From: Planctomycetota bacterium
GTDB lineage: Bacteria > Planctomycetota > UBA8742 > UBA2392
DNA length: 64,000 bases
Assembly (NCBI GenBank): GCA_016722065.1
Contig: JADKGX010000002.1
Coordinates: 57,301-121,300 of the forward strand
Direction: 5' to 3'
Below the pieces are notes generated by a model that was not told the DNA's origin, searched no databases, and saw only the letters and a program-made list of their open reading frames with translations. Shown piece after piece: positions 45,147 through 60,975 of this stretch (position 1 is its first letter; every line of letters begins with the position of its first letter). The translations under genes and the position numbers were made by a program.

Positions 45147-45148
45147 GC

Positions 45149-46128: not shown

Positions 46129-46147
46129 GCGGTGCCTGGATTGGCCT

Positions 46148-46864: not shown

Positions 46865-46927
46865 AGTGCAAGCAACATATCATCGCCGCATCTGTGCGAG
46901 CAGTTCCCTTTTGGGCTTTTGGTACTG

Positions 46928-47374
46928 TCAAAACGGGATCTCGTCGCTGGTGGTGGCTGGCTCGAACCATGGCACCTGGGCGCCGTCGTCTGACCAGTCT
47001 GGCGCGGCTTCTTCCTGGGTCGGTTCTTCTTCCAGCCCTTTCGTGTTGTCGCGTGGCTGGTAGTGCTTGATCAAGTAGGCTTCGTGATCTAGCGGCTTGT
47101 CCGTTGCATACCACGCAATTTCTACGTCGTCGCGGTGGTAGGCTTCGCGGGGCTCGCCCCGGTCAATCCAATGGCCCATGTGGCGCTTGATCGTCTCGTA
47201 AAGGCGCCCTGTGTGGCTTTCGCCAACATAGAGCATGGCCTTGGTGCGGGCGTTTCGGATGCCGTACACCCCGTCAATCCAAGGCGCCATCTGCTTTGGG
47301 TAGCGCGTGCCTGGCGGGCCTGGGCGAAACCATTCGCCGGGCTTGAACGGGCGCGGGGTTTGAATCTTCTGCAT
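46928..47374 (-). CDS. GIY-YIG-like nuclease with acidic DEIPF tail
   Basis: GVYGIRN...LYVGES...IKRH...E...N pattern; ends TTSDEIPF. Confidence 0.72.
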   Translation of the reverse strand: MQKIQTPRPFKPGEWFRPGPPGTRYPKQMAPWIDGVYGIRNARTKAMLYVGESHTGRLYETIKRHMGHWIDRGEPREAYHRDDVEIAWYATDKPLDHEAYLIKHYQPRDNTKGLEEEPTQEEAAPDWSDDGAQVPWFEPATTSDEIPF

Positions 47375-47463
47375 GGGTTTCTCCGGTGCCTGATTTTTTG
47401 CTCTGCCTGTCGCGGGCCTGCGGTGTATCTTTGCACCTTCAAAGCACTGCCCTGGGGTTCCTT

Positions 47464-48009
47464 ATGACCACTTCTGTCGATGCCTTGATTTGCCCTCACT
47501 GTGCGGCCTCTATCGACGTGCCTGATGGCGTGACGCGCCTCAAGTGCCGGTTCTGCGGTAGCACGCTGGAACTACGCGAAACAGGCAGCGCGCGCGGCCT
47601 GGCGCTGTTGCAAGTGAGCGTTGACAAGATCGCGTCGGGTGTTGACGTGATTGCGCAGCACACGGGCGCGCTGGCCTCGCATACGTTGGGCGCGCGTGAA
47701 CGTTGGAAAGCCGCGTATGATTCCCTGCGTGGCCGGGCGCGCAAACGCATGCTTGCCGCAACGGTCGTGGCGCTCCTGGGCTTCGCGGCGATGTTCGCAA
47801 CGTATGCGTTTCTGACGGCCATAAATGAACTGCCGCCCACGGCGACGGCCACGCAACGGGCGCAAGCGCAACACGACGCGGGGGCCTCGTACCTGTTCGC
47901 CAGCATGTTCGCCACGTTGCCCTTTCTTCTGGCGGCGGGTGTCCTGCAGAAAGGCGCCCAAAACCTGGCAGCGGAAGCCCAAGCCCTGAAACAGCGCGAG
48001 CCGATCTAG
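47464..48009 (+). CDS. Zn-ribbon 2-TM membrane protein
   Basis: CPHC...CRFC, then two hydrophobic helices; opposite strand to the viral operon. Confidence 0.75.
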   Translation: MTTSVDALICPHCAASIDVPDGVTRLKCRFCGSTLELRETGSARGLALLQVSVDKIASGVDVIAQHTGALASHTLGARERWKAAYDSLRGRARKRMLAATVVALLGFAAMFATYAFLTAINELPPTATATQRAQAQHDAGASYLFASMFATLPFLLAAGVLQKGAQNLAAEAQALKQREPI

Positions 48010-48764
48010 CGCGAGACGATCACGGCCACGGCAACCGCGCCAACGGCCAAGGCGACAATCGGCCCCCATGGCATTGATGCCTCAATGCCCTCGCTAATGC
48101 CCTCGCCCACGGCCTTGCCTGTGCGCTTGATCAGATTCTCGGCGCCCTGGGCTACGGCCTCGGCCTGATGGGCAACGTAGTCGTCAACCTCTGACCACTT
48201 CACGGTGAACAGCGGCGCGCCTGGAATGAGGGCAAGCCACGGGTTGCCTTCAACTGCGAAGTCGGCGCCGATCTCGCTGCGCACGGCCTGGGCGTTGCTG
48301 TTGTAGCGGTCTTTGAGGCCGGAAAGCAGCGCGTCGGCCACGCGAACGGCGTGGGCCATCGCTGCGCCTGCGTTGTCGAGTGTGCGGCGCTTGGCGGCGG
48401 TAAACAGCGGCGCGGCGCCTTCCTTGATTGCCTGGGCGATGTTTGCAACGCGGTCGTTGTAGAGGCGCGCGGCGGTGTAGATATCCATAGCCGGGCCGTC
48501 CCACGCCTCTTGCGGGTAGCTGTTCCAGTTCGTCGCCAGCGCAAAGGCTTTGGCCTTGCGGGCTACTTCGTCGGCTTCAAAGAACGCCTGCAAGGTGGCG
48601 TCGTTGGAATAGTCGCCGGGCTTCCAGACCAGACGCGGGATTTCGTCGGCGGTGCCTTGGCTGCCGCGCACGCGCGGGCGGTGCATCTGGCCGGCTGGGG
48701 CGCTGGCGCGTGTGGCCGGCACAAAGCCGAACATGGTGGCGGGGCGTTGGAGTCTGCGGAACAT
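48006..48764 (-). CDS. Putative virion protein with C-terminal membrane anchor
   Basis: Helical body; ends WGPIVALAVGAVAVAVIVSR. Confidence 0.7.
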   Translation of the reverse strand: MFRRLQRPATMFGFVPATRASAPAGQMHRPRVRGSQGTADEIPRLVWKPGDYSNDATLQAFFEADEVARKAKAFALATNWNSYPQEAWDGPAMDIYTAARLYNDRVANIAQAIKEGAAPLFTAAKRRTLDNAGAAMAHAVRVADALLSGLKDRYNSNAQAVRSEIGADFAVEGNPWLALIPGAPLFTVKWSEVDDYVAHQAEAVAQGAENLIKRTGKAVGEGISEGIEASMPWGPIVALAVGAVAVAVIVSR

Positions 48765-48799
48765 GGCGGGCCTTTCGTTGGTGGTGGCCGTGGTGGGGT

Positions 48800-48853
48800 G
48801 GCGACGGGCGCGGGAGCCCCAACGCGGCGCGCCACGCGGGCGCGCCCGTCGCC
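48800..48853. repeat. 13-bp perfect inverted repeat (intergenic hairpin)
   Basis: GGCGACGGGCGCG (48800-48812) / CGCGCCCGTCGCC (48841-48853). Confidence 0.7.
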
Positions 48854-48861
48854 GGGAGTGT

Positions 48862-49353
48862 TCACTTGATCAAGCGCCAAAGCACAAAGGCCAGACCAGC
48901 GCCAATGATGGCGGTGGTGCCGGGGTTGGCCTTGATGGTTTCCATGATGCCGTTGCCCTGGGCCTTGGCGACGGCGTTGGCCACGTCGTCTGCGCGGGCG
49001 TCGGGCACGGCGCCCACGGCGCCCGTGGCGCCTTTGTCGGTCGATGCCGGGCTTGTGGGGCCGGTGGGCTCGGGCAAGCGTTCGGCGGGCTCCTCCACGC
49101 GCTCCACGGGCGCGGCAAGGTTGAGCTGCGCGAACGTGGCAAAGCTGACGTCGTTGCCTGGGTAACTTGTCCAGCGGCCATTTGACGTGCGGCGGAACAT
49201 CGAAACCTCGCGCGGCGGAACGCCGGTGCCTCGATCTGCTGCAAAGGGCTCGCGCAAGTAAGCGACGGTGCCGATGGGATATTCCTTGGGCACGGCGGCG
49301 CCCAAAATGCCGGGCACCTTTGCGGAACCAAAAAAGCCCGTTTCAATGATCAT
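48862..49353 (-). CDS. Putative virion protein with C-terminal membrane anchor
   Basis: Small N-terminal domain, Pro/Ala linker, ends TAIIGAGLAFVLWRLIK. Confidence 0.7.
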   Translation of the reverse strand: MIIETGFFGSAKVPGILGAAVPKEYPIGTVAYLREPFAADRGTGVPPREVSMFRRTSNGRWTSYPGNDVSFATFAQLNLAAPVERVEEPAERLPEPTGPTSPASTDKGATGAVGAVPDARADDVANAVAKAQGNGIMETIKANPGTTAIIGAGLAFVLWRLIK

Positions 49354-49481
49354 GGGGAACCTCGGGAAGTGCCGCCCGCAAGGCAAGGCTTACGGGCGGC
49401 GGGGTGGATTTGTGGCGGGTGGTGTCCTTGGTCGTCCTGGCCTTCGGTTTGCGATCCTGGGGCATTTGTGGCGGTCGTTTT

Positions 49482-49826
49482 TTACTCCCTTGGGCCGGTT
49501 GGCCGGGTTTGCGGCCTGTAGGGCACTTCGGGGAGTTCTTCGCCCTGGTCTTGGTCTTGGTCGTACTCGGCCTGGTCTTGGTCGCTCATGGGGATTGTGC
49601 CGGTGCATCGGTGCGGGTGCGGGCTCAAGGTTTGGCTGATGGCCGGGAGTATCGCGGCGATGCCAGCGGCAAACATGTTTTGCATGGCGGCGGCGCGCTC
49701 GCGGCCTTCCTGCAGAATGCAGTTGTTGCGGTGCCATGCCAGCGCCAGCCGGGCAAAGCCGCCCGCGCTGCTGATCAAGATGGCCGTAATGGCCAGAATC
49801 AAGGCGGCAAAGGGTAGGTCGTTCAT
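49482..49826 (-). CDS. Small membrane protein with acidic tail
   Basis: N-terminal TM (FAALILAITAILISSAGG); CAGGAG RBS. Confidence 0.6.
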   Translation of the reverse strand: MNDLPFAALILAITAILISSAGGFARLALAWHRNNCILQEGRERAAAMQNMFAAGIAAILPAISQTLSPHPHRCTGTIPMSDQDQAEYDQDQDQGEELPEVPYRPQTRPTGPRE

Positions 49827-49877
49827 CGGTGGGGCTCCTGGTGGTGGTCGGGGTTGGTGGTGGTTTGCGTGGCGGTG

Positions 49878-50207
49878 CTACTTGGTGATGGCCTTGAGTA
49901 AGCCGGGAATCAACGTGCCGATCATGCTGGCGCCGCGCGTGACGGCATCTTGCAACGCGGTCGTGAGGGCGCGCGCCGTGGTGATGCTGACGGCGGCCGC
50001 CACGTTCTGTACCTGGGCGGCAAGATCAAGCCGGGCCTGGGCGTCTACCTTGCCTGTGGCCAGTTCGCGCGCGGTGTTGGTGAAAGCGGCGCGCGCCACC
50101 TTGCCCACAAGCGCGCGGTCTTGCTCGCTCCACTTGGCTACCTCGTCGCCAGCGCTGCGCTTGATTGCCTCAAGTATCATGCGGGCAAAATCTCCTGCGG
50201 TCGTCAT
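49878..50207 (-). CDS. Hypothetical helical protein with amphipathic C-terminus
   Basis: GGAG RBS; in operon. Confidence 0.65.
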   Translation of the reverse strand: MTTAGDFARMILEAIKRSAGDEVAKWSEQDRALVGKVARAAFTNTARELATGKVDAQARLDLAAQVQNVAAAVSITTARALTTALQDAVTRGASMIGTLIPGLLKAITK

Positions 50208-50276
50208 TGCAATGGCTCCGGTTGCGGGTTGCGAAAGCCTGCAAGGGGCGCCCGTGGGCGCCCCTTCGGGCGACGG

Positions 50277-50612
50277 TCAAAACGCGAGTCTTACCTTCTC
50301 CACGCCGGTGATGCCTCCGGCCTGCGCGGCCAGCGTGTAGGCCAGCGCCAGCCACAAGCGCTGCGTCTCGCTCTTGGCCTGGCCGGGCGTGAGGCGCTTT
50401 TCCAGTGCGGCCATTTCGCCATGGTGAAAGTTGGTGACGTGGGCGGGCACGCTGCTTGTGGGCGCGCCGTTCAAGCGCTCGGCCAGTTTGCCCAACGTGG
50501 CGATGGCGTCTTGGGCTTCCTCGCCCTGGTGGGGCATCTTGCCGATGCGCTGCATTGCCTCGGCAATCGTGCGGTCGCTCTGGCTGGTCTTGGCTTTGGT
50601 CTTGGCTGCCAT
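50277..50612 (-). CDS. Hypothetical protein
   Basis: AAGGAA RBS; in operon. Confidence 0.6.
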   Translation of the reverse strand: MAAKTKAKTSQSDRTIAEAMQRIGKMPHQGEEAQDAIATLGKLAERLNGAPTSSVPAHVTNFHHGEMAALEKRLTPGQAKSETQRLWLALAYTLAAQAGGITGVEKVRLAF

Positions 50613-50665
50613 GGGTCGGTTTCCTTGCGTTGGTGGTGGTGGTGGTGGTTTGGTTGGTGCCGGGG

Positions 50666-50959
50666 TTACTTGCCCTCGGCCTTTCGCAGCCTCAAGTCCC
50701 ACGTCTTAAGCGTGGTCAAGCCCTGGTCGCGCTGTTCGTCGGTCAAGCTGCTGTCGGCCTCGATGTAGCGGGCCTGGCGCGGCGCCACGGCGTTGTATGT
50801 GGCGCGGTCGGCCTTGACGTACTCGCCCTGCACGGTGCAGCCGCAAAGCAGCGCCAGAAGCGGGCCAAGCACAAGCACAAGCACAAACAGCAACAAGGCG
50901 GCGCGCTCGCGTCGGCGGTCTGTTGGTGGCGGGTTGTCGGTTGTGATCGTCGGGCTCAT
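50666..50959 (-). CDS. Small lipoprotein (o-spanin-like candidate)
   Basis: RRRER + hydrophobic stretch + LLCGC lipobox; short helical mature part. Confidence 0.7.
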   Translation of the reverse strand: MSPTITTDNPPPTDRRRERAALLLFVLVLVLGPLLALLCGCTVQGEYVKADRATYNAVAPRQARYIEADSSLTDEQRDQGLTTLKTWDLRLRKAEGK

Positions 50960-50998
50960 CGGTGGGGCTCCTGTGTGGGTTGCTCGCGGGCTCGCGGG

Positions 50999-51310
50999 CT
51001 AGTTGTCGGTGGGCCTGGCCTTGGTGTTCTCGCGGATTGCGGCGGCAAGCTCCGCGATGTTGGCGCCGCCCTGGGCCATGGCGGCGGTGTGGGCGGTCTG
51101 CGCAACGGCCTGGGCCTCGGCGGCGGTCGCGGCGCGCTCTGCGATGGCAAGCGCGCGGTCGCGGTGCGTGAGTAGCTTGTCAATCAATGGCTGCACGTTC
51201 TCGCGCCACGCGGCTTTGACCACGCGCGAAAGCAAGCCGCCAATGATCAGCAAGGCAGCCGGAAGCGGCGCGTTGCTCAAGAGCGTGGCCAGTGCGGTTG
51301 TTTCGTCCAT
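50999..51310 (-). CDS. Single-TM coiled-coil protein (holin- or i-spanin-like candidate)
   Basis: N-terminal TM (LPAALLIIGGLL) followed by an Ala-rich coiled coil; directly upstream of the lipoprotein. Confidence 0.6.
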   Translation of the reverse strand: MDETTALATLLSNAPLPAALLIIGGLLSRVVKAAWRENVQPLIDKLLTHRDRALAIAERAATAAEAQAVAQTAHTAAMAQGGANIAELAAAIRENTKARPTDN

Positions 51311-51323
51311 GGTGCGGGCTCCG

Positions 51324-52205
51324 TTAGATGCCGTAGTAAGTTTTCAAGTCGTCAACCAACGTGGCATAGTTGGCATAGAGGCCATCGCTTAGGCTTCGCA
51401 GGCAATATCAAGATCGGCCTCGCCCAAGCCCAAGGCGCCCGCGTCGGGTGTCCAGTCGGCATTTTCTGCGACGGTCACAAAGGCGCCGCCGTCGATTGCG
51501 AGTTTCAATTTCTTCTCGCCTGCGGTGTTGTCAAAGCGCACATGCAGAACATGGGCGCCCACGTTGAACGCGGTATTTATCGCGGTCTGCGCGTAGCCTG
51601 TGAGGAAGCCGTAAGCGCGGGCGCCGGTGGTGTATTGGCGCACCACAAAGGGCCGGTTGGAGCCCAAGGCGCATATGCTCAAGTTGTCGTCGGCGGAAAC
51701 GCGGCGCACCACAATAAAGTAGTCGTAACTCTTGGCCGTGATCATGGCGGCGGCGGTGGTGTTCGTCGCCATCCCATGACTAAAGCCCTTTAATGGCTTC
51801 GATGTAGAGCGTGGGCTTGCCGTTAATTGCGTGGTCGCCGTCGCCCTTGCCGTGCTTGTAGTTGTTATTTCCGTTGCTCTGGTATGCCCACAATGCGCCC
51901 TCTGCGGGCGCGCGGCGTTTGATCACCTCGCCTTCGGTGCCTGCTGCGGGTGTGGTGCCCGCAACGTCGGTAAACAGTTTGGCCAAGTCCTCTTGGTAAA
52001 CCCAAGTAAGGCCGGTGCCTGCCAGCGGGTGCGACGGGCCAGCCGGGGGCGCGGGCGCGATGCTGGCGGCCACGCTGGCGGCCAAGCTGACGGCGCTGGC
52101 GACGGTGACGGAAAACAGCGCCGCGCCGCCCAATGCGCCGCCGCCCGCGTAGCCTATGGCGCGCGTGCGGGGCGGTTCGATCACGGGCAAGAACATCGCG
52201 GGCAT
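51324..52205 (-). CDS. Putative spike / receptor-binding protein (LamG-like beta-sandwich), split by two apparent frameshifts
   Basis: Three segments in different frames join into one protein ending ...LVDDLKTYYGI*; breaks at 51782-51784 and about 51395. Confidence 0.55.
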
Positions 52206-52212
52206 GTTTTCC

Positions 52213-52659
52213 CTAGCAGTTGCAAGTTGCGTCGGCGCTGACCATTTCGCGCACTTCGATGCTGACGGTTGCGTCTTTGCGGGTGCTTCCGTCCACGGCG
52301 GAAAGCGCCACAAGATCAAGCGTGAGGCTCTTGATGCCTGCGGGCGCGGCTTCCACCTTGCTGCCCTCGGCGCTGATAAAGAGGCCGCGGCCTGCGGCCA
52401 ATTCGTTCAACGCTTCGTCGGGCGTGAAAGGTGAATTCACGGCCACGAACACAAGCGCGTCGTCGTCGCCGGTGATCGTGGGCCACTGTTGCAACGTGAT
52501 CGCCCACGCCTTTGTTTCGGGGCCGCGCGGCAAGTCGATCTGCACGCGGTGGCTGGTGTCGGCGCTGCTGACCAGCTCGCGCGATGCCCACGGGCGGGCG
52601 CGGCCTGGCACCAAAGGGCGCAAGGCTTCGGCTATCGTTTTGCAATCGCAATCTTTCAT
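52213..52659 (-). CDS. Beta-rich 148-aa protein (penton / single jelly-roll candidate)
   Basis: Alternating hydrophobic beta patterns (RVQIDL, WAITLQ, LVFVAV, LTLDLV, VSIEVRE); lies between the capsid candidates and the spike. Confidence 0.55.
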   Translation of the reverse strand: MKDCDCKTIAEALRPLVPGRARPWASRELVSSADTSHRVQIDLPRGPETKAWAITLQQWPTITGDDDALVFVAVNSPFTPDEALNELAAGRGLFISAEGSKVEAAPAGIKSLTLDLVALSAVDGSTRKDATVSIEVREMVSADATCNC

Positions 52660-52686
52660 GGCCGGGTTTCCTTGGTCTGCCTGGGC

Positions 52687-52713
52687 CGGGCGCGCCGCGC
52701 GACGGCGCGCCCG
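52687..52713. repeat. GC-rich hairpin 3' of the 367-aa gene
   Basis: CGGGCGCGCCG-cgcga-CGGCGCGCCCG. Confidence 0.65.
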
Positions 52714-52748
52714 ATGGCTCACCCCGTCGCGCGGGGCCGGGGTGGGGG

Positions 52749-53852
52749 TTACACCCCGTTGGCGGCACCTTGGAATTCGTCCTGGGCGCTGCGGCCTTCA
52801 AAGATGCTGACAAGCCGCAACGTGCGCGCGGCGGCGGGCGTGGTGGCGTTGATCTTCACAAAGGCCGATTCGTCGCGGTGCATGTCCACCTGGCCGAAAG
52901 CCCAGTCAAGCCCGGTGTGGCCGATGGCGTGACGGGCCGGAACGGGGTCGGTCGGGTGGGCCTGGCTTTGCGTGGCCAGTTCGGTCGTGAGCGCCAAGAA
53001 TTCACTCTCAAGGCTGATGCTGTTGGCATCGTGCAACAAGCCGCGCACGCGCAAGCGGCGCAAAAGCTTGCCGTGCTGCGCGGCGGGCGTTTGCTCGATG
53101 CGGCTTTGGAAAGCGGCGCTGTAGGCCGTGGCGTTGCCAAAGAACACGGTTTCACCTTCGCCGTTCTTGAGGCGCGTCCAAAGGGCTTCGGCCTGCTGGC
53201 CTGCGGCGCCTTCGCTTGGAAACTCCACGCAATGCAGAATCACGCGGCTAATGCGGGCGCTTGCGCCGGTCAAGTCCTGCAACGTCATTGTGACCAGTTC
53301 TTGCGGGTTGATGGCGATGGCGCCCACGCGGCGCCCGTCTGCCAGTTCCAACACGGTGCCGGGGAAGTAAACGCCGGGGTGTTGGCCTTGAATTGCCAGC
53401 GTGGCGACGGCGCTCAAGAGCGCTGTATTCAAGGTGCGCTGCAAGGCCAGTTGCGTCGTGAGTTCCTTGAAATTGTTGTTGAGCGTGGTTTGGTTGAACG
53501 CGGCGCCCACGTCGTCAACGGTGGCGTCAGCCGTGCCGACTGCGTGAGTAAGCGCGGTGGTGTTGGTCGCGGCGGGAATCGTCGCGGCCAATGAACCGCC
53601 ACTGAGTTCGTCAAACAGCGGCATGGGCGTGGGGGCAATCAAGCCCAAGGGGAAGCCGTCGCCCTGGGCGTAGTTGCGGCCTGCCACCTTGAAACTTGTA
53701 ATCAAGTTTTGCAGCGCGTGGCGCGGGTGCGTGGCGACGTAGGAAACGCCGATAATGGCGGCGCGGCATCGCGGCTTGCGCGAAAACACCACGGGCGCAA
53801 GGCCGCCCGTGTATGTGGTTTGGTCGCTGATTAGATCAAAAGGCTTGAGCAT
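52749..53852 (-). CDS. Candidate double jelly-roll capsid protein (367 aa) with head-fibre-like insert
   Basis: Two beta-rich halves of about 130 aa; helical insert ADATVDDVGAAFNQTTLNNNFKELTTQL in the first half; GGAG RBS. Confidence 0.55.
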   Translation of the reverse strand: MLKPFDLISDQTTYTGGLAPVVFSRKPRCRAAIIGVSYVATHPRHALQNLITSFKVAGRNYAQGDGFPLGLIAPTPMPLFDELSGGSLAATIPAATNTTALTHAVGTADATVDDVGAAFNQTTLNNNFKELTTQLALQRTLNTALLSAVATLAIQGQHPGVYFPGTVLELADGRRVGAIAINPQELVTMTLQDLTGASARISRVILHCVEFPSEGAAGQQAEALWTRLKNGEGETVFFGNATAYSAAFQSRIEQTPAAQHGKLLRRLRVRGLLHDANSISLESEFLALTTELATQSQAHPTDPVPARHAIGHTGLDWAFGQVDMHRDESAFVKINATTPAAARTLRLVSIFEGRSAQDEFQGAANGV

Positions 53853-53891
53853 GGCGGCGGTCTCCGTGGGTGGTCGTTTGGTTGGCCGGGT

Positions 53892-53937
53892 GGCTTGAGT
53901 TGGCGCCCTTGATTGGGCAAGGGCGCCGCTTCAAGCC
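53892..53937. repeat. Long hairpin directly 3' of the 210-aa gene
   Basis: GGCTTGA/TCAAGCC outer stem and GGCGCCCTTG/CAAGGGCGCC inner stem. Confidence 0.72.
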
Positions 53938-53944
53938 GTCAAGA

Positions 53945-54577
53945 TCAACCCTTCACGGCGTCTGCAACTTCGATGTAGCCGGTCACGCTGATGACGCCTG
54001 AGAAAGCCTCGGCAAGCGTCACGCCGGTGATGCCGTCAAACAGCACCTTGAACACTTCGCCGGGGTTGAGGATGTCCAGCGGGTTGACGTGTTCCTGGCC
54101 ATCGGGGCGCTTGCACTGGTTGAAGTGCACAAGCGAACCGGCAAAGCCGTCGTCGTCGGCGGCGGCGCCCTGGTGGGTGCCTTCAAAGCCCAACGCGTAC
54201 GCGCGGGCGGCGTTGATCACGCTGGCGGCGTTGGCGCGCTTCAGTTCCGCCGTCAAGAGGCGCATGATCTGGTGGGCCGTGCCTTCGGGAACGCGGGTGC
54301 CAGCGGCGTCAAACACCAGAATCAAATTGCCGATGTTGCGCCAGCGGTCGCTGCCGTTGGTGAAGTTCATCGTGCCAGCCAAGCCAAGCGTGGTGGCGCT
54401 GAGGGCAACGGCGGCATCGCACTTGATGAAGTTGCGCTCAAAGCGCTTGGCGCTGCTGAAATACTCGTCCATCTTGAATTTGCCGCCCGCGAAAGCGAAA
54501 GCGACGGCGCCAAAGTCGCGCAAGCGGTTCTGCTGCAACTCCTGCGCGGCTTCTTCGATCTGTTTCAGGGTAAGCAT
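53945..54577 (-). CDS. Candidate major/minor capsid protein (210 aa, single jelly-roll-like)
   Basis: Beta-rich; GGAG RBS with unstructured ACC-rich leader; strong 3' hairpin. Confidence 0.5.
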   Translation of the reverse strand: MLTLKQIEEAAQELQQNRLRDFGAVAFAFAGGKFKMDEYFSSAKRFERNFIKCDAAVALSATTLGLAGTMNFTNGSDRWRNIGNLILVFDAAGTRVPEGTAHQIMRLLTAELKRANAASVINAARAYALGFEGTHQGAAADDDGFAGSLVHFNQCKRPDGQEHVNPLDILNPGEVFKVLFDGITGVTLAEAFSGVISVTGYIEVADAVKG

Positions 54578-54634
54578 CTGGTGGTCTCCGGTGTTGGTGG
54601 TGGTCTGGTTGGTGTTCACCCCGCGCGGGGTTTG

Positions 54635-54955
54635 TTACTTGAAAAGCGAACTTCCAAGGCTGCCGATGAAGCCCTTGCCGGTGTCCAGCGCAAAATCAAG
54701 CAGCCGGTCGCCGATGGGCTTGTCCAGCGCCTTGAGTTCGGCCTTGCGTACCTCGGCGGCAAGCTCGGCCTGGCGTTCGCGTGACTGCGCCTCGGCAAGC
54801 CGCGCCTGGGCGTCTGCGGTCAAGGCTGCTGCGCCGCTATCGGGCGGAAGCAATGCCTCGTTTGTGGCGGGTTTCTTGCTGACGTAGAGCAAGCCGCCCA
54901 CAACTACTGCGGCGGCAAGTCCTCCGATGGCAAGTGTTGCTCCGTTGATCTTCAT
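54635..54955 (-). CDS. N-anchored virion membrane protein
   Basis: MKINGATLAIGGLAAAVVVGGLLYVSKK TM, coiled coil, amphipathic C-terminus. Confidence 0.72.
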   Translation of the reverse strand: MKINGATLAIGGLAAAVVVGGLLYVSKKPATNEALLPPDSGAAALTADAQARLAEAQSRERQAELAAEVRKAELKALDKPIGDRLLDFALDTGKGFIGSLGSSLFK

Positions 54956-55005
54956 GGCCGGGCGTCCTTGTGTGGTCTGTTCTTGGGTTGGCGTTTCCCT
55001 TGAAA

Positions 55006-55482
55006 TCAGTTCACAAGATCGCGCACGCGGCCATTTTGCGGGCGGTCGTTGGCGACGGTGCGCGAAATGCCCTTGCTGCCTTCGACGGTGGGCTCGGTGG
55101 TGGCCTTGGCGGGCTTCACCTTCTCGGCAATCCACGCGGCCAGTTCCTTGATTGCGGGGGCCGCGCGGCCTGCGACGGCCAAGGCGGTGCCGCCCAAGAT
55201 CGCGGCGGCAAACTTCTTGGTCGCCTTGATCTTGCTGGCGCCAAAGGCCACGGCGATGCCAGCGCCAGCGGCGATGGCGCTGGTGATCACCTGGCGCTTG
55301 GTGGTCTCGGTCGCGGCGGGCTCGCCCATCGCGGCGTTGGCCACTTCGGCGGCGACGGTTGACAAGCCTGCGCCGGTCAAGGTTGCGGCGCCCTGTTTGA
55401 CGGCGGGCACAAGCGCCAGCGCGCGATTGCCGCCGTTGCTGCTTTTGCCGGGCGGCTTGCGGGTTCCTTTGTTTCCTGCCAT
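55006..55482 (-). CDS. Multi-TM virion membrane protein
   Basis: Basic N-terminus plus two to three Gly/Ala-rich hydrophobic helices; CAGGAG RBS. Confidence 0.7.
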   Translation of the reverse strand: MAGNKGTRKPPGKSSNGGNRALALVPAVKQGAATLTGAGLSTVAAEVANAAMGEPAATETTKRQVITSAIAAGAGIAVAFGASKIKATKKFAAAILGGTALAVAGRAAPAIKELAAWIAEKVKPAKATTEPTVEGSKGISRTVANDRPQNGRVRDLVN

Positions 55483-55543
55483 GGCTCTTACTCCTGGTTG
55501 GTGGTGGTCTGCCTGGTGTGTGTTGCTGGTGTGCGTGGCCGGA

Positions 55544-55909
55544 TTAGCCCACGGTCTTGCGCAGCCGATCACGCGCGGCGTTTAGCGCCGTGCGTTCTTC
55601 GTCTGTGAGTCCTTTGACAAAGCCGGAAGCGTGGGCAAGTTTGCCGTCGCTGCAAAACTGCGAGTCGGCAAGCTGCTTGATAATCCGCAAGCCCTGGGCC
55701 TCTTTCTGCGTGAGGGTGGGGCGGGCGGGTTGCGGTGTGGCCTTGCGCGTGGCCTTGCGGGCCGGTTTGCGCGGCGTGGCCTTGCGCTTGGCCTTGGGGG
55801 CCGGTTTGCGCGGCGTGGCCTTGCGCGTGGCCTTGCGGGCGGGCTTGCGCGCGGCGGGCTTGCGCTTGGCCTTGGGGGCCGGTTTGCGGTTGGTTGTCTT
55901 TTTGCTCAT
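55544..55909 (-). CDS. Histone-H1-like basic DNA-condensing protein
   Basis: Repeats of RKPAPKAKRK / RKPARKATRKATP over the first 60 aa. Confidence 0.72.
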   Translation of the reverse strand: MSKKTTNRKPAPKAKRKPAARKPARKATRKATPRKPAPKAKRKATPRKPARKATRKATPQPARPTLTQKEAQGLRIIKQLADSQFCSDGKLAHASGFVKGLTDEERTALNAARDRLRKTVG

Positions 55910-57450
55910 CTGCCTTTGCCTCCTGTAAGTGCCAAGCCGATCACAACTGCCGCGCCTGCCGCACAAGCCGCCCAAATCCAGCCGGGCGGGCCGGTGCTTT
56001 GCGGCGGGCCTGGGCCGGTGGGCTCGGGTGCTTCGGGCGGTAGCAGCGCCACTTGCGCGGCTTCGGTGGTCTGTTTGCTGACGGCGATTTCGGATTCCAG
56101 CGCCGCGATTTCGGCCTTGATCGTGTCCACCTTGGTTTGTTCGGTCGCGGCCTGGGCTAGTGCGCGCTCGCGGGCTTCCTGCACCTGGCGTGCATCGCGG
56201 CGGTCTTGGATTGCGCGGTGAATCGCGGTGCCAGCGGCCACGGAAGCGGCGCCAAGGGCGGCGGCGGCGATGTTGTAGGGCACGGGCAAGAATGGCGCCG
56301 CCACAAGTAGCGCGCGGCCTGCGGCGGTGAACGTCTGCGCGCCAGCCTCGGCCACGGCGGTTTCATCAAAGGCGGAAACGCTGCCATCAATGAACACGGC
56401 GCCAAGCTGGTTGAGGATTTCGGCCTGGGCGAAAAAGCCAAGCGGCTTCAAGAGAAAAGTCGCCAGCCACGGCGCGGTTTTCTCGGTGCGCAAGATGTTT
56501 TCGGCCAATGCTTGCGCGCCCTTGCCTATTTCCTCGATCACGTTTCGCACAAACTTAAGCGGGTGGGTAAACAGCCGCTTGAGGCTGTCGCCAATGCCGT
56601 TGGAACCGGTCACGCTGCCGATCATTACGGGCGGCGTGGTGATCGCGCTGCCTGCAAGGCCGGTGGCGATGGCCTCGCGCGCGGCGATGTTGTCCAGCGC
56701 CACGGGCGCGGCTTGGTGCAAGGCTAGCGCGTCGTCTATGGCGGTGCCCTGGGCCGTGAAGATTTGCGCCATGCGGGCCGCGACCACGGCGGCAAGCTGT
56801 ACGTCGGTTGCGGTGGGGTTGCCCTCGTTGGCCAGCGCGAAGGCGCGCAAGGCGGCGCGGCGCTGCGTGAAGCCTTCGCCGGGCTCGATCATGGAACCGG
56901 CCCAACGTGAGGCCAGCGCAATATTGAGGCTGCCCAAATCGCGCGGTTGCGCCAGCGGCGCCAGTGTGGCGGCGCGCACAAGCACGCCAGCGGGTCGAAA
57001 GCCCTGGTCAACGTAGGCCAGCCGGAACGCGATAAAATGCAGCATCGCGGCGCGGGTTTCGTTGTAGGTGCCAGCGGAAAGCGCTTTTTCGACGGCGGCG
57101 CGCGCGGGCGCGCCCTTGGCGCGTCCGATCATGGCAAGAAACACGTTGGTTTGTTCTTCGCTCAAGGCGCGGAGTAGATCGCCCCACGTTCTGATGGTCG
57201 GGTTGTCGGGCGCGGGCGCGGCCTGCATCTGCGCAAGCGGCAAGGCTGCGAGTAGCGCGGCCTTGGTGACTGAGCCGGTAAAGCCTGACTCAAGCGCCGA
57301 TTGGCGCGGGCCTGTGCCGCCGCCCGCGTCCTTGTCGCCAATGCGGCGCCAGTAGGCTTCGCGGATTGCGGCGGGCACAAGCTGCCATGCGCGCCAGTCC
57401 ATTACGGCGGGCGCGGTGGCGGGCAAGCTGTATTCGGCGGCAAGGCTCAC
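55906..57450 (-). CDS. Large Ala-rich virion protein (about 514 aa) with internal hydrophobic hairpin and C-terminal TM
   Basis: GTG start overlapping the upstream stop, GGAGG RBS; ends WIWAACAAGAAVVIGLALTGGKGR. Confidence 0.7.
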   Translation of the reverse strand: MSLAAEYSLPATAPAVMDWRAWQLVPAAIREAYWRRIGDKDAGGGTGPRQSALESGFTGSVTKAALLAALPLAQMQAAPAPDNPTIRTWGDLLRALSEEQTNVFLAMIGRAKGAPARAAVEKALSAGTYNETRAAMLHFIAFRLAYVDQGFRPAGVLVRAATLAPLAQPRDLGSLNIALASRWAGSMIEPGEGFTQRRAALRAFALANEGNPTATDVQLAAVVAARMAQIFTAQGTAIDDALALHQAAPVALDNIAAREAIATGLAGSAITTPPVMIGSVTGSNGIGDSLKRLFTHPLKFVRNVIEEIGKGAQALAENILRTEKTAPWLATFLLKPLGFFAQAEILNQLGAVFIDGSVSAFDETAVAEAGAQTFTAAGRALLVAAPFLPVPYNIAAAALGAASVAAGTAIHRAIQDRRDARQVQEARERALAQAATEQTKVDTIKAEIAALESEIAVSKQTTEAAQVALLPPEAPEPTGPGPPQSTGPPGWIWAACAAGAAVVIGLALTGGKGR

Positions 57451-57941
57451 GCAAGCCTCCAATGCTGGCGGCGCGGATAGTGCGGCATATCGGCGCGTGT
57501 GTTGAACGGGTGGCCGGTCTGGTCTGCCTTCGGGTCGGAAAGCCACATCTTGCCGCCTGCGAAAAACTCAACGGCGGCGTGGCGGTACGGGTCGGCCTCG
57601 TCGCCAGCCGTGACCAGATAGACGCGGGCAAAGCCAAGCACGCGCAAGCCTGCCATGATCACGGCGGCCCACTGGTCGCAATCTCCGCCGTGGGCGATGG
57701 TCTCCGATACTTCCTGAATCGGGTCGCACTCGTCGCGGTCGCTCTGGCGGTAGATGCCTGCGCGGGCGGCGTCGTGTAAGGCTTCGGCGGTGGTGGCGTT
57801 GTTGGCGTGCATCCAAGCCACAAGCGCGCGGCGCTGGTCAAGATCGCGGGCGCCACGCTGCGCAGCCGCCAAAATCGCCGGGATAGTTTCGACCGGGTAG
57901 CGGCGGCGCTTGTCTGCTTGGCTGGTGTAGCAGAATTCCAC
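57447..57941 (-). CDS. Transglutaminase-like (Cys-His-Asp) protein
   Basis: GGDCDQWAAVIMAGL...YRHAAVE...WLSDP triad pattern. Confidence 0.8.
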   Translation of the reverse strand: MEFCYTSQADKRRRYPVETIPAILAAAQRGARDLDQRRALVAWMHANNATTAEALHDAARAGIYRQSDRDECDPIQEVSETIAHGGDCDQWAAVIMAGLRVLGFARVYLVTAGDEADPYRHAAVEFFAGGKMWLSDPKADQTGHPFNTRADMPHYPRRQHWRLA

Positions 57942-57946
57942 GGTGA

Positions 57947-58297
57947 CTACTCCACGGGCTTCGGTGCGGGCTTTGCGGTCTCTTGACTGGTCAAGTCTGC
58001 TTTGATCTCGCCTTGCGCCTGGTGAATCATGCGCACTACCTCGGCGCGCAACTTGGGCGCGCTGGCCAGTGCGGTACGGTGCGCGATGCGTTTCAGCGGC
58101 GGCAACGTAGCAAGGCCGGTCTCGATGATGTGCGACGGCGGCGCGCCCACAAGCGCGCGCTTGGCCTGGGCGGAAAGCCCGTGCATGGCGGCGCGTGCAA
58201 GCTGTTCGTCGCTTTCCCAAAGCGCCAGCGCCTTGCCCAACAAGCGGGCGTCGGCGGGCGGCAAGGGAATCGGGCGCGGCTTGGGGACGCTGCTCAT
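57947..58297 (-). CDS. Hypothetical protein
   Basis: ATGA overlap with the upstream gene, GGAGG RBS. Confidence 0.6.
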   Translation of the reverse strand: MSSVPKPRPIPLPPADARLLGKALALWESDEQLARAAMHGLSAQAKRALVGAPPSHIIETGLATLPPLKRIAHRTALASAPKLRAEVVRMIHQAQGEIKADLTSQETAKPAPKPVE

Positions 58298-59202
58298 TCT
58301 GCGCCCTCCACGTCGGAAACTTCGGCGGTCGTGTCCACGGTTTTTACGCCGGTCATCTTCTCGCGGGCGTATTCAAAAATGGCCTGGATGTTTTCTTCGC
58401 TGGCGATGTTGTCCATGAAGCGCGCCAGCGCGCCGGGCTTGTCCTCGCGCACGTCCTCGGCGGCCTCGATCAACGGCGCGAGTTCGGCCTTCATGCGGGC
58501 GCCCAAGCTGGTCAACTTGCGCACCTCGCCAATTACCTTGCTGATTTGCTCCATGGGGTCTACGGGCTTGCGGGCGCGCTCGATCACGTCAAGCACAAGC
58601 TCGCGGCCTAGCATGTCCATGGGCGACGGCGCGGCCTGGCGCTGTTCCAGCCGTTCCAGCGCGCGGCGCATTTCCGCAAGCTCGGGGTTGGGCGCGGCGT
58701 GGTCGGGCGCGGCCTGGGCCTGGGCGGCGTCGGGCTCGATCATCAAAGCAAAGTGGGCCTCGTGCTTGCCGTCCTGGTCACTCCACGCCACGGTTCCTGC
58801 AACGTGGCCAGCGCCAGCGCGGCGCCGCATTGTTGCAATGGCATCGGGCGCCAGATGCGCCAGCGGGCACGCGATTTCCCGGCCTTGATCGGCGGTAAAC
58901 TTCACGGTGGCGGCGCGGTGGGGGACGGCCTGCAATTCGTCGGCGGTAAAGGCGCCGCCGTCAATCAAGCCCTGCAAGTAGCGCGGGATGGGCGCGGTTG
59001 AGCCGGTGCCGCGCCCGTTTTCCGCGTGGGCCTCTGCGCGCCGAACGGTGGGGCCGCGCGTGGGTGGCTCGGGGCGCGGTTCGGCGGGCATCGGCGGGAA
59101 GTCGTCGTCTAGCTCGTCGTCGGCGGGGTTGCCGCCCATGCGGTCGGAAAACAGCGCGGTGTTTGCCGTGTTGAGCGTGGGCTCTGTGCTGTCCGGTTGC
59201 AT
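58294..59202 (-). CDS. Hypothetical protein (acidic/Pro N-terminus, helical C-terminus); first gene of the putative late operon
   Basis: About 302-aa ORF coupled to the downstream gene. Confidence 0.65.
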   Translation of the reverse strand: MQPDSTEPTLNTANTALFSDRMGGNPADDELDDDFPPMPAEPRPEPPTRGPTVRRAEAHAENGRGTGSTAPIPRYLQGLIDGGAFTADELQAVPHRAATVKFTADQGREIACPLAHLAPDAIATMRRRAGAGHVAGTVAWSDQDGKHEAHFALMIEPDAAQAQAAPDHAAPNPELAEMRRALERLEQRQAAPSPMDMLGRELVLDVIERARKPVDPMEQISKVIGEVRKLTSLGARMKAELAPLIEAAEDVREDKPGALARFMDNIASEENIQAIFEYAREKMTGVKTVDTTAEVSDVEGAE

Positions 59203-60664
59203 GGGCGGCGCCTCGCGGGTTGTGGCTGCTGCCACAAGCTCAAGCCACCATCGTAAACGGTGCACCCACGCTGCTCGCGGCCGGGCAACAATCTTGGATC
59301 CAGGCGCGGGGCCTGATGGCCACGGTTTCCTAGCCGCGGGTCGTGGTACTTTCGGGCGATGGCCTCAAGCTGCGCCAGCGTGGCGCACGTTGGGGCCGGT
59401 GCGTAACTTTCGCGCCACGCCGGGCGGCCTGCTTTGAGCCAGTCTTGGGCGTCCATCTGCAAGCGCAAAGGCCAGCGCCCGCGCCGGGCCTCGTCAATCG
59501 CGGCATCCTGAAACGGCGCCAGCCGCGCGGCAAACGCGTCGGCCATCGCTTCACGGTCTGCGCGGGCCTGGTCTCGCGCGGAATCCTGCGCCTGATGCAA
59601 CTGCCTGCGGTTCGCAAGTGTTGACTCGTCAAGGGCGCGGCCTTGTGGCTGTTGGTCGTTGCCGTTGGCTGGTAGCTGCATGGCCTGGCGCAAGGCGGCG
59701 CGGCGCTGTTGGTCTTGGTGCCAGCGGTCTACCGTGATTGCGCCCTCGGGCAACGTGAGACGTTCGCCGCGTTGGAAACGGCGCACCATATCGCGCAAGA
59801 ATCCCCAACATTCGTTGGCCTGCTGTTGCGGTTTGCGAGTTTCTCCAGCGCCATCGTGAGCGCAGCGGGCGTGGCGCTGGCGCCGATCTGTGCAAAGTCG
59901 CGCATATCGGCGGGCGTTAGCAGGCAGACCACGCGGGCGAAAGCTGCAAGGGCGTCGGGGCTCCCTTCTGCTGCTGCTTTATCTTGCTTCTGCATATCTG
60001 CTTTTAGGCGGTCGTCGGATGGGCTTGCTGGTGCGGTTCCTGGGCGTTGGTTGGTGGTGTATACCACCTGGTTTGGTGGTATATGCGCGGGTGGGGTGGT
60101 GGTGTGCACCACCAACTCTGGTGGTGTAGACCACCTATCTTGGTGGTGTATACCACCAACTTTGGCGTCGGTTTCTGCGTCGGTTTCTGCCTGGATTTCG
60201 TCGCCCTGGTCGGCCTGGGTTTCGGTGTTATCCACACTCTTGATGGGCGCGTTTCCGGTGTTCGTTTCTCGCCAGTATGGCCGGGCATCGCATAGCGATT
60301 TGAGATTGCTGACGGCCTGGGCGCCGTCGTGAAACACAAGCGCGCCGGTGCGGTCTTTCCATGCGCCATAGTCTGTGTTGAGGATGTAGCGGGCTTTGCT
60401 GGTCTCGATCAAGATGCCACGCCAGACCAGCCGCTTAAGTGCGCGGTAGCAGTCGCCACGGGCGCTGCGTTGGCTGTTGAGCCACGGGCCGGTGGCCACG
60501 TTGATCAGCGCAGATTTCTGCCATTGCTGCGGCGTGCCGTACATGTAAGCGATTGCCGACAACATCAAGCCGGATTCGGCCTGGCTCAAGTCCATTTGCG
60601 CCAGCGCAAAAAGCAAGTCGTGGCATGGCGTGGCGAAGGGCTTGGCGCGTAGTTTGTAGCTCAC
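59109..60664 (-). CDS. Lambda-O-like replication initiator; apparent -1 frameshift at 59803-59806; C-terminal end uncertain
   Basis: N-terminus LLFALAQMDLSQAE...AYMYG...ALKRLVWRGIL...LNTDYGAW resembles the Phage_rep_O winged helix; one more G gives NVGGFLRDMVRRF and joins ORF 59109-59798. Confidence 0.72.
60053..60157. repeat. Iteron array (putative origin) inside the rep gene
   Basis: GGTGG-N6-CCACC at 60053, 60098, 60120 and 60142, plus a half-site at 60075; spacing 22/23/22/22 bp. Confidence 0.85.
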
Positions 60665-60975
60665 TTGGCGGGCTCCTGCTTGGGCGCTGTGCGCCAGTAG
60701 ATTGCGTGTAAGGCCAGATACAACGCGGCCATGGGGCCGTGATTGATTGCGGCCTCTGTCATTGCGTGGCCTAGCTTGGCGGGGTTGCGGGCGGCCTGGG
60801 CGGCCTGGGCCAGCGCGCGCAAGATGGTTTCGCTGCTGGCCAAGCATTGCACGGGGCCGCGCGCCATCTCCCACGCTTCGACGGTCTCTGTCTGCACTCC
60901 GATCACGCGCGCCAGCACAAGGGTTGAAAGCCCAAGGTCGGCGCGCGTTTTCCAGACAAGATCGGGCGTGATCAT
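60661..60975 (-). CDS. XRE-type HTH transcriptional regulator
   Basis: TRADLGLSTLVLARVIGVQTETVEAWE. Confidence 0.8.
   Translation of the reverse strand: MITPDLVWKTRADLGLSTLVLARVIGVQTETVEAWEMARGPVQCLASSETILRALAQAAQAARNPAKLGHAMTEAAINHGPMAALYLALHAIYWRTAPKQEPAK

Follow-up and report, generated by a model that had tools for sequence, protein, structure and literature searches.

A module shared with tailed-phage surface proteins is inserted into a predicted outer loop of a putative double-jelly-roll capsid protein in a Planctomycetota genome

The analyzed window, a stretch of 64,000 nucleotides from the genome of a Planctomycetota bacterium (contig JADKGX010000002.1 of assembly GCA_016722065.1), encodes a protein of 367 aa that is predicted to be the double-jelly-roll (DJR) major capsid protein of a small tailless provirus. 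Its first jelly roll is interrupted by 82 residues with separate homologues among the proteins of tailed phages. This module, consisting of an arm, a cap and four to five heptads of coiled coil, is probably a portable virion-surface unit which, in the F-G loop of jelly roll 1, would act as a built-in trimeric fibre. The features are located on the minus strand of the window as follows.

52749..53852, minus strand: 367-aa ORF (P0001), translated from the sequence, with the stop codon at 52749-52751
53622..53852, minus strand: residues 1-77, strands B-F of jelly roll 1, with the motif GDxFPLGL at the end
53376..53621, minus strand: whole insertion, residues 78-159 (82 residues), in the F-G loop of jelly roll 1
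53556..53621, minus strand: N-side arm or linker, residues 78-99, PLFDELSGGSLAATIPAATNTT, with a pLDDT below 50 in both models
53484..53555, minus strand: near-invariant non-helical cap, residues 100-123, ALTHAVGTADATVDDVGAAFNQTT, continuing into LNNNF, defined by conservation
53388..53483, minus strand: predicted heptad-repeat alpha-helix, residues 124-155 (modelled by AF2 as a helix at 121-155/156)
53376..53387, minus strand: C-side linker to strand G, residues 156-159, next to the conserved motif YFPG
52752..53375, minus strand: residues 160-367, strands G-I of jelly roll 1, linker helix 215-229 and jelly roll 2

The GC3 of the 367-aa ORF is 0.78, similar to that of the adjoining minus-strand genes, and the gene sits midway along a late block that is encoded on one strand and contains many small membrane proteins. 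A related contig has a syntenic structural block, with products of 545, 85, 233, 220, 465 and 156 aa, in which the gene keeps its place. Searches of the full ORF against Pfam, PHROG and NCBIfam gave no match, and nothing significant was obtained from these databases with the insert of 65 or 80 residues or with all 42 family members. No coat-protein relatives were detected when the coat-protein alignment was used to scan contigs of IMG/VR and JGI. The protein was modelled by AF2 with a mean pLDDT of 82.1 and a pTM of 0.74, the core outside the insert reaching a pLDDT of about 85-95. Residues 1-77 contain strands at 3-8, 18-22, 31-40, 49-56 and 62-64 (pLDDT 88-95), and residues 160-367 contain strands at 164-169, 178-193, 201-210, 234-244, 248-254, 265-274, 289-294, 322-324, 330-336 and 343-353 (pLDDT mostly 84-95). 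In the model, the two sets of strands on either side of the linker helix form two beta-sandwiches in one chain. In the 42-member family alignment G64 and L71 are nearly invariant, and G64, D65 and F67 are invariant in the alignment of the closest seven sequences.

The best full-length matches of this model in a Foldseek search are all DJR capsid proteins, namely those of PBCV-1 (8.8e-6), SGIV (2e-5), STIV (1.2e-3) and PRD1 (P3, 2e-3), with further full-length DJR matches to PR772, Faustovirus, phiCjT23, FLiP and PM2. In BFVD, the coat proteins of Megaviridae, Wip1, ASFV (p72) and STIV were matched. The DJR identity assumed in the original prediction is thereby supported at the fold level, at TM-scores that are modest (0.28-0.44). 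Regarding the helices found in the F-G regions of DJR proteins (FG1-alpha, FG2-alpha), the second sandwich of the model contains a short helix (306-309), whereas the F-G region of the first sandwich contains only a three-residue helix (69-71) and the insert. The modest TM-scores, together with single-sandwich matches (furin P domain, GOLD domain) interleaved in the Foldseek list and the lack of a sequence family backing the capsid identity, would also fit another two-beta-sandwich protein of the virion or cell surface, i.e., a fibre-bearing accessory protein rather than a shell protein. The same applies to the missing packaging ATPase motif: the Walker-A pattern [AG]xxxxGK[ST] does not occur in the six frames of positions 45001-62300, which is unusual for DJR viruses. 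An FtsK/HerA-type packaging ATPase is typical of this virus group, but it does not define the fold. An accessory protein is nevertheless improbable, as the top-ranked matches (E up to about 1e-3) that span both halves belong to DJR capsid proteins of at least six virus families, with a glucosyltransferase (TM 0.18) as the one exception, and as the gene lies within the late block and keeps its place in the syntenic structural block.

Positions 53394-53588 on the minus strand translate to AATIPAATNTTALTHAVGTADATVDDVGAAFNQTTLNNNFKELTTQLALQRTLNTALLSAVATLA, corresponding to residues 89-153 of the ORF, which the original prediction had described as a helical module interrupting the capsid protein. 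The interruption is real: from 'GDxFPLGLL...' to 'YFPG' there are 89 residues in the 367-aa protein compared to 15-29 in homologues without the insert. Its limits are wider, comprising 82 residues (78-159; 53376-53621) instead of 65, and were set using the alignment and the block with a pLDDT below 50 in the first model, which was made without module sequences. The helical character applies to the second half, whereas the first half is formed by the extended arm and the non-helical cap. The peptide quoted in the original prediction comprises residues 100-145. Since five strands precede the insert, it is placed in F-G loop 1. The FG loops of DJR proteins face the capsid exterior, and those of phiCjT23 stand upright at the subunit boundaries (PMC9719478). 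Judged by strand order, the insertion site would be such an outward-facing loop of the capsid protein.

Adding module sequences to the alignment raised the pLDDT of residues 101-140 to 77-87 (cap 77-80), while both linkers, including residues 151-159, stayed below 50. The N-side linker has a length of 22 residues and the C-side linker of about 4-9 residues. According to the models, the insert is predicted to be a fold unit separate from the high-confidence core and tied to it by the two low-confidence linkers, and is thus not modelled as a part of the core fold. The N-side arm resembles a repeat of about 22 aa, 'LTDxSGGxxxxTIxAxTxPT', that precedes the cap in tailed-phage proteins (compared with P0014, P0015, P0025 and L029).

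Homologues without the insert, for which the original prediction had proposed to search, exist and are the majority. The loop comprises 15-29 residues in about 29 of the 40 family representatives and 74-169 residues in 11 of them, and two other proviruses from the host's own family (L016 and L017) have no insert. In a tree built without the insert columns, all insert-bearing rows are located inside one clade of 24 rows (SH-aLRT 96). Since the loop is short in most relatives, including the two proviruses from the same host family, the insertion is considered a derived state. Most likely, one sub-lineage of this tailless-virus family gained the module, and gained it from a tailed phage.

Searched alone against 5.8 billion sequences, the 65-residue region matched 24 non-capsid protein clusters with E-values from 3e-14 to 6e-5, i.e., the segment has homologues of its own. 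The module could be found at 10 loci in genomes of Chloroflexota, Actinomycetota, Planctomycetota and Pseudomonadota and on 25 IMG/VR contigs. Its carriers span at least five bacterial phyla, with hosts including Streptomyces, Kouleothrix, Microcystis, Methylophilaceae and planctomycetes. Among deposited phages, the only match of a 71-aa form of the module was Microcystis phage Mwe-JY13, and a tblastn search of 50,697 phage records with the module consensus gave no result. There is no Pfam, NCBIfam or PDB entry for the module; a profile of 23 module sequences searched against all PDB chains yielded a spurious syntaxin match (E 0.07) as the best hit. In these 23 sequences eleven columns are invariant, including G, D-V-G, F, Q and L-N-N-N-F, and all eleven are present in P0001. 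The cap motif GTADxTVxDVGxxFxQxTLNNNF, with a length of about 30 residues, is near-invariant. Extra sequence is nested between 'DV' and 'NNF' in several proteins. It amounts to 15-25 residues in three of them (P0006, P0051 and P0025) and to about 80 in three others (P0007, P0041 and P0047), which would fit a cap that forms a tip. As Ala, Thr and Asn are abundant in the region, a chance or compositional resemblance was considered, as was an assembly chimera. Both are rejected as next to impossible, given E-values down to 3e-14 for 65 residues in a search of this size, the eleven invariant columns, and the recurrence of the carrier with the module in the same architecture in independent JGI, Logan and NCBI assemblies (P0003, P0005, P0004).

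A donor within the same genome was rejected because the module is present as a single copy in the 3.86-Mb host assembly. Among 401 sampled genomes of the host phylum, no other contained it. At the protein level, 31 of the 32 cap residues are shared with the tailed-phage protein P0010, with 11 of the 31 codons for identical residues differing synonymously in this comparison. Overall, the cap is 80-86% identical at the nucleotide level, and 11-14 of the codons for 31 identical residues differ synonymously; the 69-residue match to L029 has a nucleotide identity of 67%. A recent transfer is ruled out at the DNA level by these synonymous differences and nucleotide identities. Since the synonymous sites differ, the identity of the cap is attributed to constraint.

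In tailed phages, the proteins P0014 and P0015 match PF09956 (5.6e-21 and 8.2e-24), and P0014 also matches PHROG 122 'head decoration' (2.1e-23). The gene of P0014 adjoins the capsid gene in a myovirus head-gene cluster; other module genes are small and are located directly after HK97-type capsid genes or in the slot of lambda gpD. One of the small proteins encoded behind an HK97-type capsid gene matches PHROG 6994 'head fiber protein' (E 9.7e-6). Against the PDB, P0014 gave only a marginal minor-capsid match in its N-domain. The protein described in the JBD30 paper differs from the 9gay 'gp48' that was matched. Going by these sequence matches and gene positions, the usual home of the module is at the far end of head-decoration or cement proteins, small head-fibre proteins and some tail-fibre- or tailspike-like proteins of tailed phages. 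The likeness to head-fibre and decoration proteins, proposed in the original prediction, was thus recovered through PF09956, PHROG 122, the proteins encoded behind capsid genes and, by way of the 71-aa form, PHROG 6994. The module is usually C-terminal and is internal in the 367-aa protein, in P0010/P0012 and in P0028/P0030. Where it is C-terminal, its ends need not be close, and a hairpin geometry is taken from the internal occurrences only.

With the heptad register fixed at the F of NNNF, position a has a mean hydropathy of +2.28 and position d of +2.58 across 35 module sequences, compared to -0.5 to -1.2 at b, c, e, f and g. This clear a/d periodicity predicts a coiled coil. In the clade of the carrier, the helix has polar residues, Q and N, at two core positions as well as extra hydrophobic residues outside a/d. 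By analogy with the usually trimeric classes of proteins carrying the module, namely beta-helix tailspikes (P0020), head-decoration proteins and DJR capsomers, the coiled coil would be three-stranded. Such extra hydrophobic residues would also fit a module that did not self-associate but served as a docking handle or monomeric adhesin, binding a virion or host component or pairing with another helical protein encoded by the element. A conserved partner could then explain why the cap is so extremely conserved across at least five phyla under purifying selection, and the model of the monomer is already fairly confident. However, Streptomyces, Kouleothrix, Microcystis, Methylophilaceae and planctomycetes have no obvious surface ligand in common, and the clean heptads and the recurrence on usually trimeric classes favour self-association, so that a docking handle appears unlikely.

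In the preferred reading as a built-in fibre, the three copies of the module in a trimeric capsomer would self-associate through the heptad helix. The arm would run up, the cap would form the tip, and the helix would lead back down into the jelly roll. Each capsomer would thus bear a short built-in fibre or knob, which would clamp the trimer and decorate the whole capsid, serving surface adhesion or stability; in tailed phages, this task falls to a separate decoration protein. Here we infer the trimerisation, the projection on the capsomer axis and the function.

The modules of three neighbouring capsomers might pair instead and staple the lattice as a built-in cement, in the manner of the 3-fold cement proteins of HK97-type capsids. 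This is argued from the position of F-G loop 1 towards the capsomer edge; the flexible N-side linker of 22 residues would give the necessary reach, and cement and decoration domains (PF09956, PHROG 122) are the commonest partners of the module. Many head-decoration proteins bind as trimers at the 3-fold or quasi-3-fold axes between capsomers (PMC11445458). Stapling nonetheless appears unlikely, since the capsid-binding-like domain of the decoration proteins is N-terminal and the module is located at the opposite end of the chain, since tail-fibre- and tailspike-like proteins carry the module with no lattice to staple, and since the C-side linker comprises only about 4-9 residues.

A second candidate was found in P0030/P0028, a protein of 386 aa with the module in its second half, encoded on a 9.5-kb contig together with a protein-primed polymerase and a HerA-like ATPase. 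The comparison with the carrier family by hhalign showed no similarity, and PDB and phage searches were empty, apart from a sub-threshold match to PM2 P2_C (E 0.0047). A second DJR coat protein is not supported by the hhalign, PDB and phage searches, and P0030/P0028 remains a lead.

DJR viruses and HK97-type viruses are placed in separate realms, and their virion modules are considered unrelated. We suggest, tentatively and with some doubt, that an undescribed, ultra-conserved module, normally at the tip of tailed-phage proteins (Duplodnaviria), moves between virus realms and was captured in exterior loops of DJR coat proteins (Varidnaviria) at least once, possibly twice independently (P0030/P0028), turning every capsomer into a fibre whose tip accepts nested domains. 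If true, tailless viruses would possess a capsid-wide display scaffold for host-binding domains. Such a shared, exchangeable surface part would mean that decoration modules can cross the divide between the realms and still work on a different shell. The widespread module with its motif of about 30 residues, occurring in at least five phyla and lacking a Pfam, NCBIfam or PDB entry, is well suited to structure determination and may serve as a compact self-assembling tag. A testable prediction is the presence of fibre-bearing capsomers in this virus family of planctomycete-type hosts, about which little is known, and the natural pairs with and without the insert are suited to testing what capsid decoration does.

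Among the known systems, the proteins of PF09956 (Phage_cement_2) and PHROG 122 share the module of arm, cap and heptad helix, with 29 of 32 cap residues identical, and a tailed-phage head-module protein in L029 is 71% identical to the insert (49 of 69 residues, no gaps). In decoration proteins the module is the C-terminal part of a separate protein whose N-domain binds the HK97-fold capsid, whereas here it is spliced into the predicted DJR capsid protein itself. The N-terminal cement domain of PF09956/PHROG 122, about 100 residues long, does not occur in P0001, which is not a member of these families. PHROG 6994 'head fiber protein', a profile of 67 positions, is matched at positions 10-67 by a 71-aa Streptomyces prophage protein that is barely more than the module (E 9.7e-6) and by the helix of P0014 (E 0.0022). 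The insert alone has no match to PHROG 6994 at E<=1, and the link is transitive via these two proteins. The function name of PHROG 6994 is an annotation, not a tested activity.

Functional analogues of the proposed mechanism are the head fibre gp8.5 of phi29 and the foldon of T4 fibritin, which represent, on phage surfaces, trimeric helical fibres or small trimerisation caps adjoining a coiled coil. Both are separate proteins rather than insertions in a capsid protein, and the module profile showed no sequence similarity to either of them in the search of all PDB chains. Decoration within the chain of the coat protein is known from the I-domain of the P22 coat protein and from Ig-like domains on HK97-fold coats. 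In Orsay virus, the CP-delta fusion builds a fibre covalently into the coat chain (PMC7565637). The built-in principle is the same in these three cases; they concern different folds and viruses, with terminal fusions or unrelated domains, and none is a DJR coat protein with a tailed-phage module.

The insert is similar to the surface-loop 'towers' of DJR capsids, such as those of the adenovirus hexon, PBCV-1 Vp54 and the FG loops of phiCjT23, in that an exterior loop of the jelly roll elaborates the top of the capsomer. Towers of this kind are carried on the capsomers by the adenovirus hexon and by PBCV-1 Vp54. They are lineage-specific elaborations of loops, and to our knowledge none of them has detectable homologues in other virus realms. 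Unlike these towers, the insert of the 367-aa protein is discrete, is predicted to be half coiled coil and has independent homologues in tailed phages.

The candidate double-jelly-roll (DJR) coat protein P0001 is encoded within a block of genes on one strand, located at about 48.0 to 62.1 kb of the window. The GC3 of its gene is 0.78 and the codon-position GC pattern is the same as that of the neighbours. The peptide of the original prediction is present in the translation and does interrupt the protein, but its limits had to be corrected, as the insert is somewhat wider and comprises residues 78-159.

Features of the coat gene (coordinates in the window)
52749..53852, (-): P0001 ORF, 367 aa (ORF call and translation)
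53394-53588, (-): originally predicted segment, P0001 residues 89-153 (translation)
53376-53621, (-): whole insert, P0001 residues 78-159 (alignment and model confidence)

In Pfam and PHROG, no family match was obtained for P0001 or its neighbours. In the late block, a 257-aa protein (57447-58220 (-)) shows weak transglutaminase-core matches to PF01841 (E 0.0096) and PF04473 (E 0.033), and could act in the virion as a cysteine-protease or transglutaminase-like enzyme.

The search of P0001 against 5.8 billion proteins resulted in two classes of match. Full-length relatives are P0003 (86%), P0004 (97%, truncated), P0005 (77%), P0006 (45%), P0007 (37%), P0008 and P0009, and 16 unrelated proteins match just 7-23% of P0001 with an identity of 48-89%. 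The distance from 'GDPF(P/S)LGLL' to 'YFPG' is ~20 residues in P0008 (302 aa) and P0009 (319 aa), compared to ~90 in P0001. The NCBI protein P0004 (316 aa, 97% identical to P0001) stops early and is divergent in its last ~20 residues, which suggests a frameshifted or decaying provirus copy in a closely related genome.

For the exhaustive search for coat relatives, a profile without the insert columns was used, which revealed 44 matches, about 40 of them members of the coat family and mostly 298-338 aa long. Homologues without the insert could be identified: the loop between fixed anchors has 15-29 residues in 29 of 40 tree rows and 74-169 residues in the other 11. In the coat tree, also built without the insert columns, all 11 insert-bearing rows fall within a single clade of 24 rows (SH-aLRT 96) and the insert is absent from the deeper branches. 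The tree requires at least three changes in insert presence, and the history may have been one gain followed by losses. In a sample of 401 genomes from the host phylum, the coat family is present in just three, all from the host's own family, and the other two carry insert-less proviruses (L016, L017). Judged from these sequences, the insert in P0001 is a derived state.

Searched alone, residues 89-153 yielded separate homologues in 24 non-coat protein clusters (E 3e-14 to 6e-5). The unit common to these module sequences starts with the ~22-residue repeat 'LTDxSGGxxxxTIxAxTxPT' in one or two copies, continues with the near-invariant cap 'ALTHxVGTADxTVxDVGxxFxQxTLNNNF' and ends in a helix of 19-60 residues reaching the C-terminus. 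Across 23 module sequences, no variation was seen at the cap columns G, D-V-G, F, Q and L-N-N-N-F. Each of the three parts of the insert also occurs in tailed-phage proteins. A chance resemblance or a chimera is excluded by the common architecture in independent assemblies and by the extreme E-values.

Carriers of the module outside the coat family
P0014, P0015, P0026, P0029: cement/decoration domains (PF09956, 5.6e-21 for P0014 and 8.2e-24 for P0015; PHROG 122, 2.1e-23 for P0014)
L011: PHROG 1731 'virion structural protein' domain (2e-29)
P0020: tailspike-type pectate-lyase beta-helix
Nocardioides, Kouleothrix: long fibre-like proteins of 593 and 775 aa
L008, L013, L032 and others: stand-alone proteins of 71-82 aa

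In total, 25 IMG/VR contigs with a GC content of 43-70% encode the module, in nearly all cases at the C-terminus, and no entry covering it was found in Pfam, NCBIfam or PDB. The sole relative among 50,697 deposited phage genomes is located in Microcystis phage Mwe-JY13 (PP438406.1). There, an unannotated 81-aa 'hypothetical protein' (L021:3596-3841) is flanked by portal and major head genes, and a new annotation as head-fibre-like could be given to it.

The likeness to phage head-fibre and decoration proteins, as originally predicted, holds transitively: the 71-aa Streptomyces protein matches nearly the full profile of PHROG 6994 'head fiber protein' (E 9.7e-6) and the P0014 helix matches it with E 0.0022, but the insert itself stays below significance. 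The P0014 gene of a myovirus has a capsid gene on one side and head-tail and sheath genes on the other. The Streptomyces and Phycisphaeraceae module genes follow portal, S78 protease and HK97-type capsid genes and precede a connector gene. Furthermore, the P0025 gene occupies the lambda gpD slot downstream of terminase, portal and S49 protease, and the module gene of the tailed-phage locus L029 is preceded by portal, Mu-F and SPP1 gp13-like capsid genes. By gene neighbourhood, the module is thus assigned to tailed-phage heads.

The insert and the L029 head protein are 71% identical over 69 residues without gaps (DNA identity 67%), and 31 of the 32 cap residues are shared with the module protein P0010. 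Compared to the sister coat P0006, the insert is 37% identical (gapped) and the core 49%. Between the P0001 clade and most other coat-family inserts, the identity is 25-37% in the cap (60% to P0044, over a shorter overlap) and mostly 41-62% in the helix. Both a remodelling of the cap in the other lineages and its refreshment in the P0001 lineage by recombination with a tailed-phage gene would fit these values. At the nucleotide level, the cap shows 80-86% identity, and of the 29-31 identical residues, 11-14 are encoded by different synonymous codons. These differences, together with the 67% of the L029 match, rule out a recent transfer as the cause of the high cap identity; the cap motif is therefore under very strong purifying selection. 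In tailed phages, the module is widespread and occurs in diverse architectures, but among the coats it is confined to a sub-clade, so that a transfer from a tailed phage to a tailless virus is the likelier direction.

The carrier was modelled with AF2 using a 7-sequence alignment, resulting in a pLDDT of 82-95 over most of P0001 and below 50 at residues 78-159. Eleven module segments were added to the alignment for a second model (mean pLDDT 82.1), in which values rose to 77-87 at residues 101-140 and stayed below 50 at 77-98 and 151-159. According to these models, the segment is not part of the core fold, and residues 78-159 are predicted to be an independently folding unit held by two flexible tethers.

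The best full-length Foldseek matches of P0001 in the PDB are DJR capsid proteins, namely PBCV-1 (8.8e-6), SGIV (2e-5), STIV (1.2e-3) and PRD1 P3 (2e-3), as well as PR772, Faustovirus, phiCjT23, FLiP and PM2. Among predicted viral structures, coat proteins of Megaviridae, Bacillus phage Wip1, ASFV (p72) and STIV were matched. The TM-scores to DJR proteins are modest (0.28-0.44), and the remaining matches span a single sandwich only. As no coat family member matches a Pfam capsid model, the assignment is made entirely on the fold; P0001 probably has a DJR coat fold, and that it is not a shell protein is very unlikely. A six-frame scan of the provirus (45001-62300) gave no Walker-A motif ([AG]xxxxGK[ST]), so no FtsK/HerA-type packaging ATPase is recognisable there, which is unusual among DJR viruses.

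Five modelled strands precede the insert (3-8, 18-22, 31-40, 49-56 and 62-64) and three more lie between it and the linker helix, which places the insert in the F-G loop of jelly roll 1. In both sandwiches, strand D is followed by a short helix (43-47 and 282-285). The F-G region of sandwich 2 contains another short helix (306-309), that of sandwich 1 a helix of three residues (69-71) and the insert. The loops on the outer side of upright DJR coats are BC, DE, FG and HI, and the FG loops of phiCjT23 stand upright at subunit boundaries (PMC9719478). From the strand order, the insert of P0001 would face the capsid exterior. At such a position, inserts could also staple neighbouring capsomers together, which is considered unlikely.

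Helix 121-156 shows canonical heptads from the F of NNNF onward, with mean hydropathies (35 sequences) of +2.28 at position a, +2.58 at position d and -0.5 to -1.2 elsewhere. Next to this pattern, a docking handle or adhesin without self-association is an improbable reading of the insert. Since the insert must come back to the jelly roll, a hairpin is proposed, in which the arm would rise, the cap would form the tip and the helix would descend. This fits the internal position of the module in P0010/P0012 and P0028/P0030, the 22-residue arm, whose length would suffice for a ~50 Å helix by geometric estimate, and the nested extra sequence, which always lies between 'DV' and 'NNF' (15-25 residues in P0006, P0051 and P0025). 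In P0007, P0041 and P0047 (L002:10001-11398), a beta-rich segment of ~80 residues is nested at this site, which suggests that additional domains are tolerated, or displayed, at the tip.

Tailspikes, decoration proteins and DJR capsomers are usually trimeric, and because the module sits on these three classes, one three-stranded coiled coil per capsomer is the most economical reading. Many decoration proteins occupy 3-fold axes as trimers (PMC11445458). The on-axis trimer of the insert has close to an even chance of being correct; the module insertion as a whole is highly probable. Such a coiled coil would clamp the capsomer trimer and provide short fibres over the whole capsid, which would serve adhesion or stability. 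As the cap is conserved across phyla, it is less likely to be a host-specific receptor site, and a folding or trimerisation nucleus, foldon-like in function, would fit better.

The 18-kb contig L002, which encodes P0007, is related to the window element and keeps its structural gene order (545/85/233/220/465/156/146/454 aa). It encodes a Rep_1 rolling-circle initiator plus SSB (L002:1446-3182), compared to only a weak lambda-O-like match in the window element (59729-60994). The replication module appears to have been swapped, and relatives may pass through a single-stranded genome stage. The third gene after the coat gene of L002 encodes a 454-aa protein with a He_PIG Ig-like domain (PF05345; L002:12336-13700), a candidate vertex spike or adhesin.

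The 386-aa proteins P0030 (L019:5429-6589) and P0028 are 36% identical overall and about 85-90% in the module, and have this cap, together with a short helix, at an internal position (residues ~272-320). Further genes of the 9.5-kb contig L019 code for a protein-primed DNA polymerase (PF03175) and for a 180-aa HerA/DUF87-like ATPase (E 8.6e-4), and the P0030 C-terminus has a sub-threshold match to the PM2 coat P2_C model (E 0.0047). In this pair, a tectivirus-like DJR coat may have captured the module a second time and independently.

DJR coats with elaborated exterior loops are already known, e.g., the towers of hexon and Vp54. In the open-access literature, no description of a DJR coat with such an insert was found. 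New are the hitherto undescribed family of the module and, from sequence comparison, the identity of the insert as a discrete module common to tailed-phage head-decoration and fibre proteins. A coat protein with a built-in decoration is known from Orsay virus CP-delta (PMC7565637) and from the I-domain of P22.
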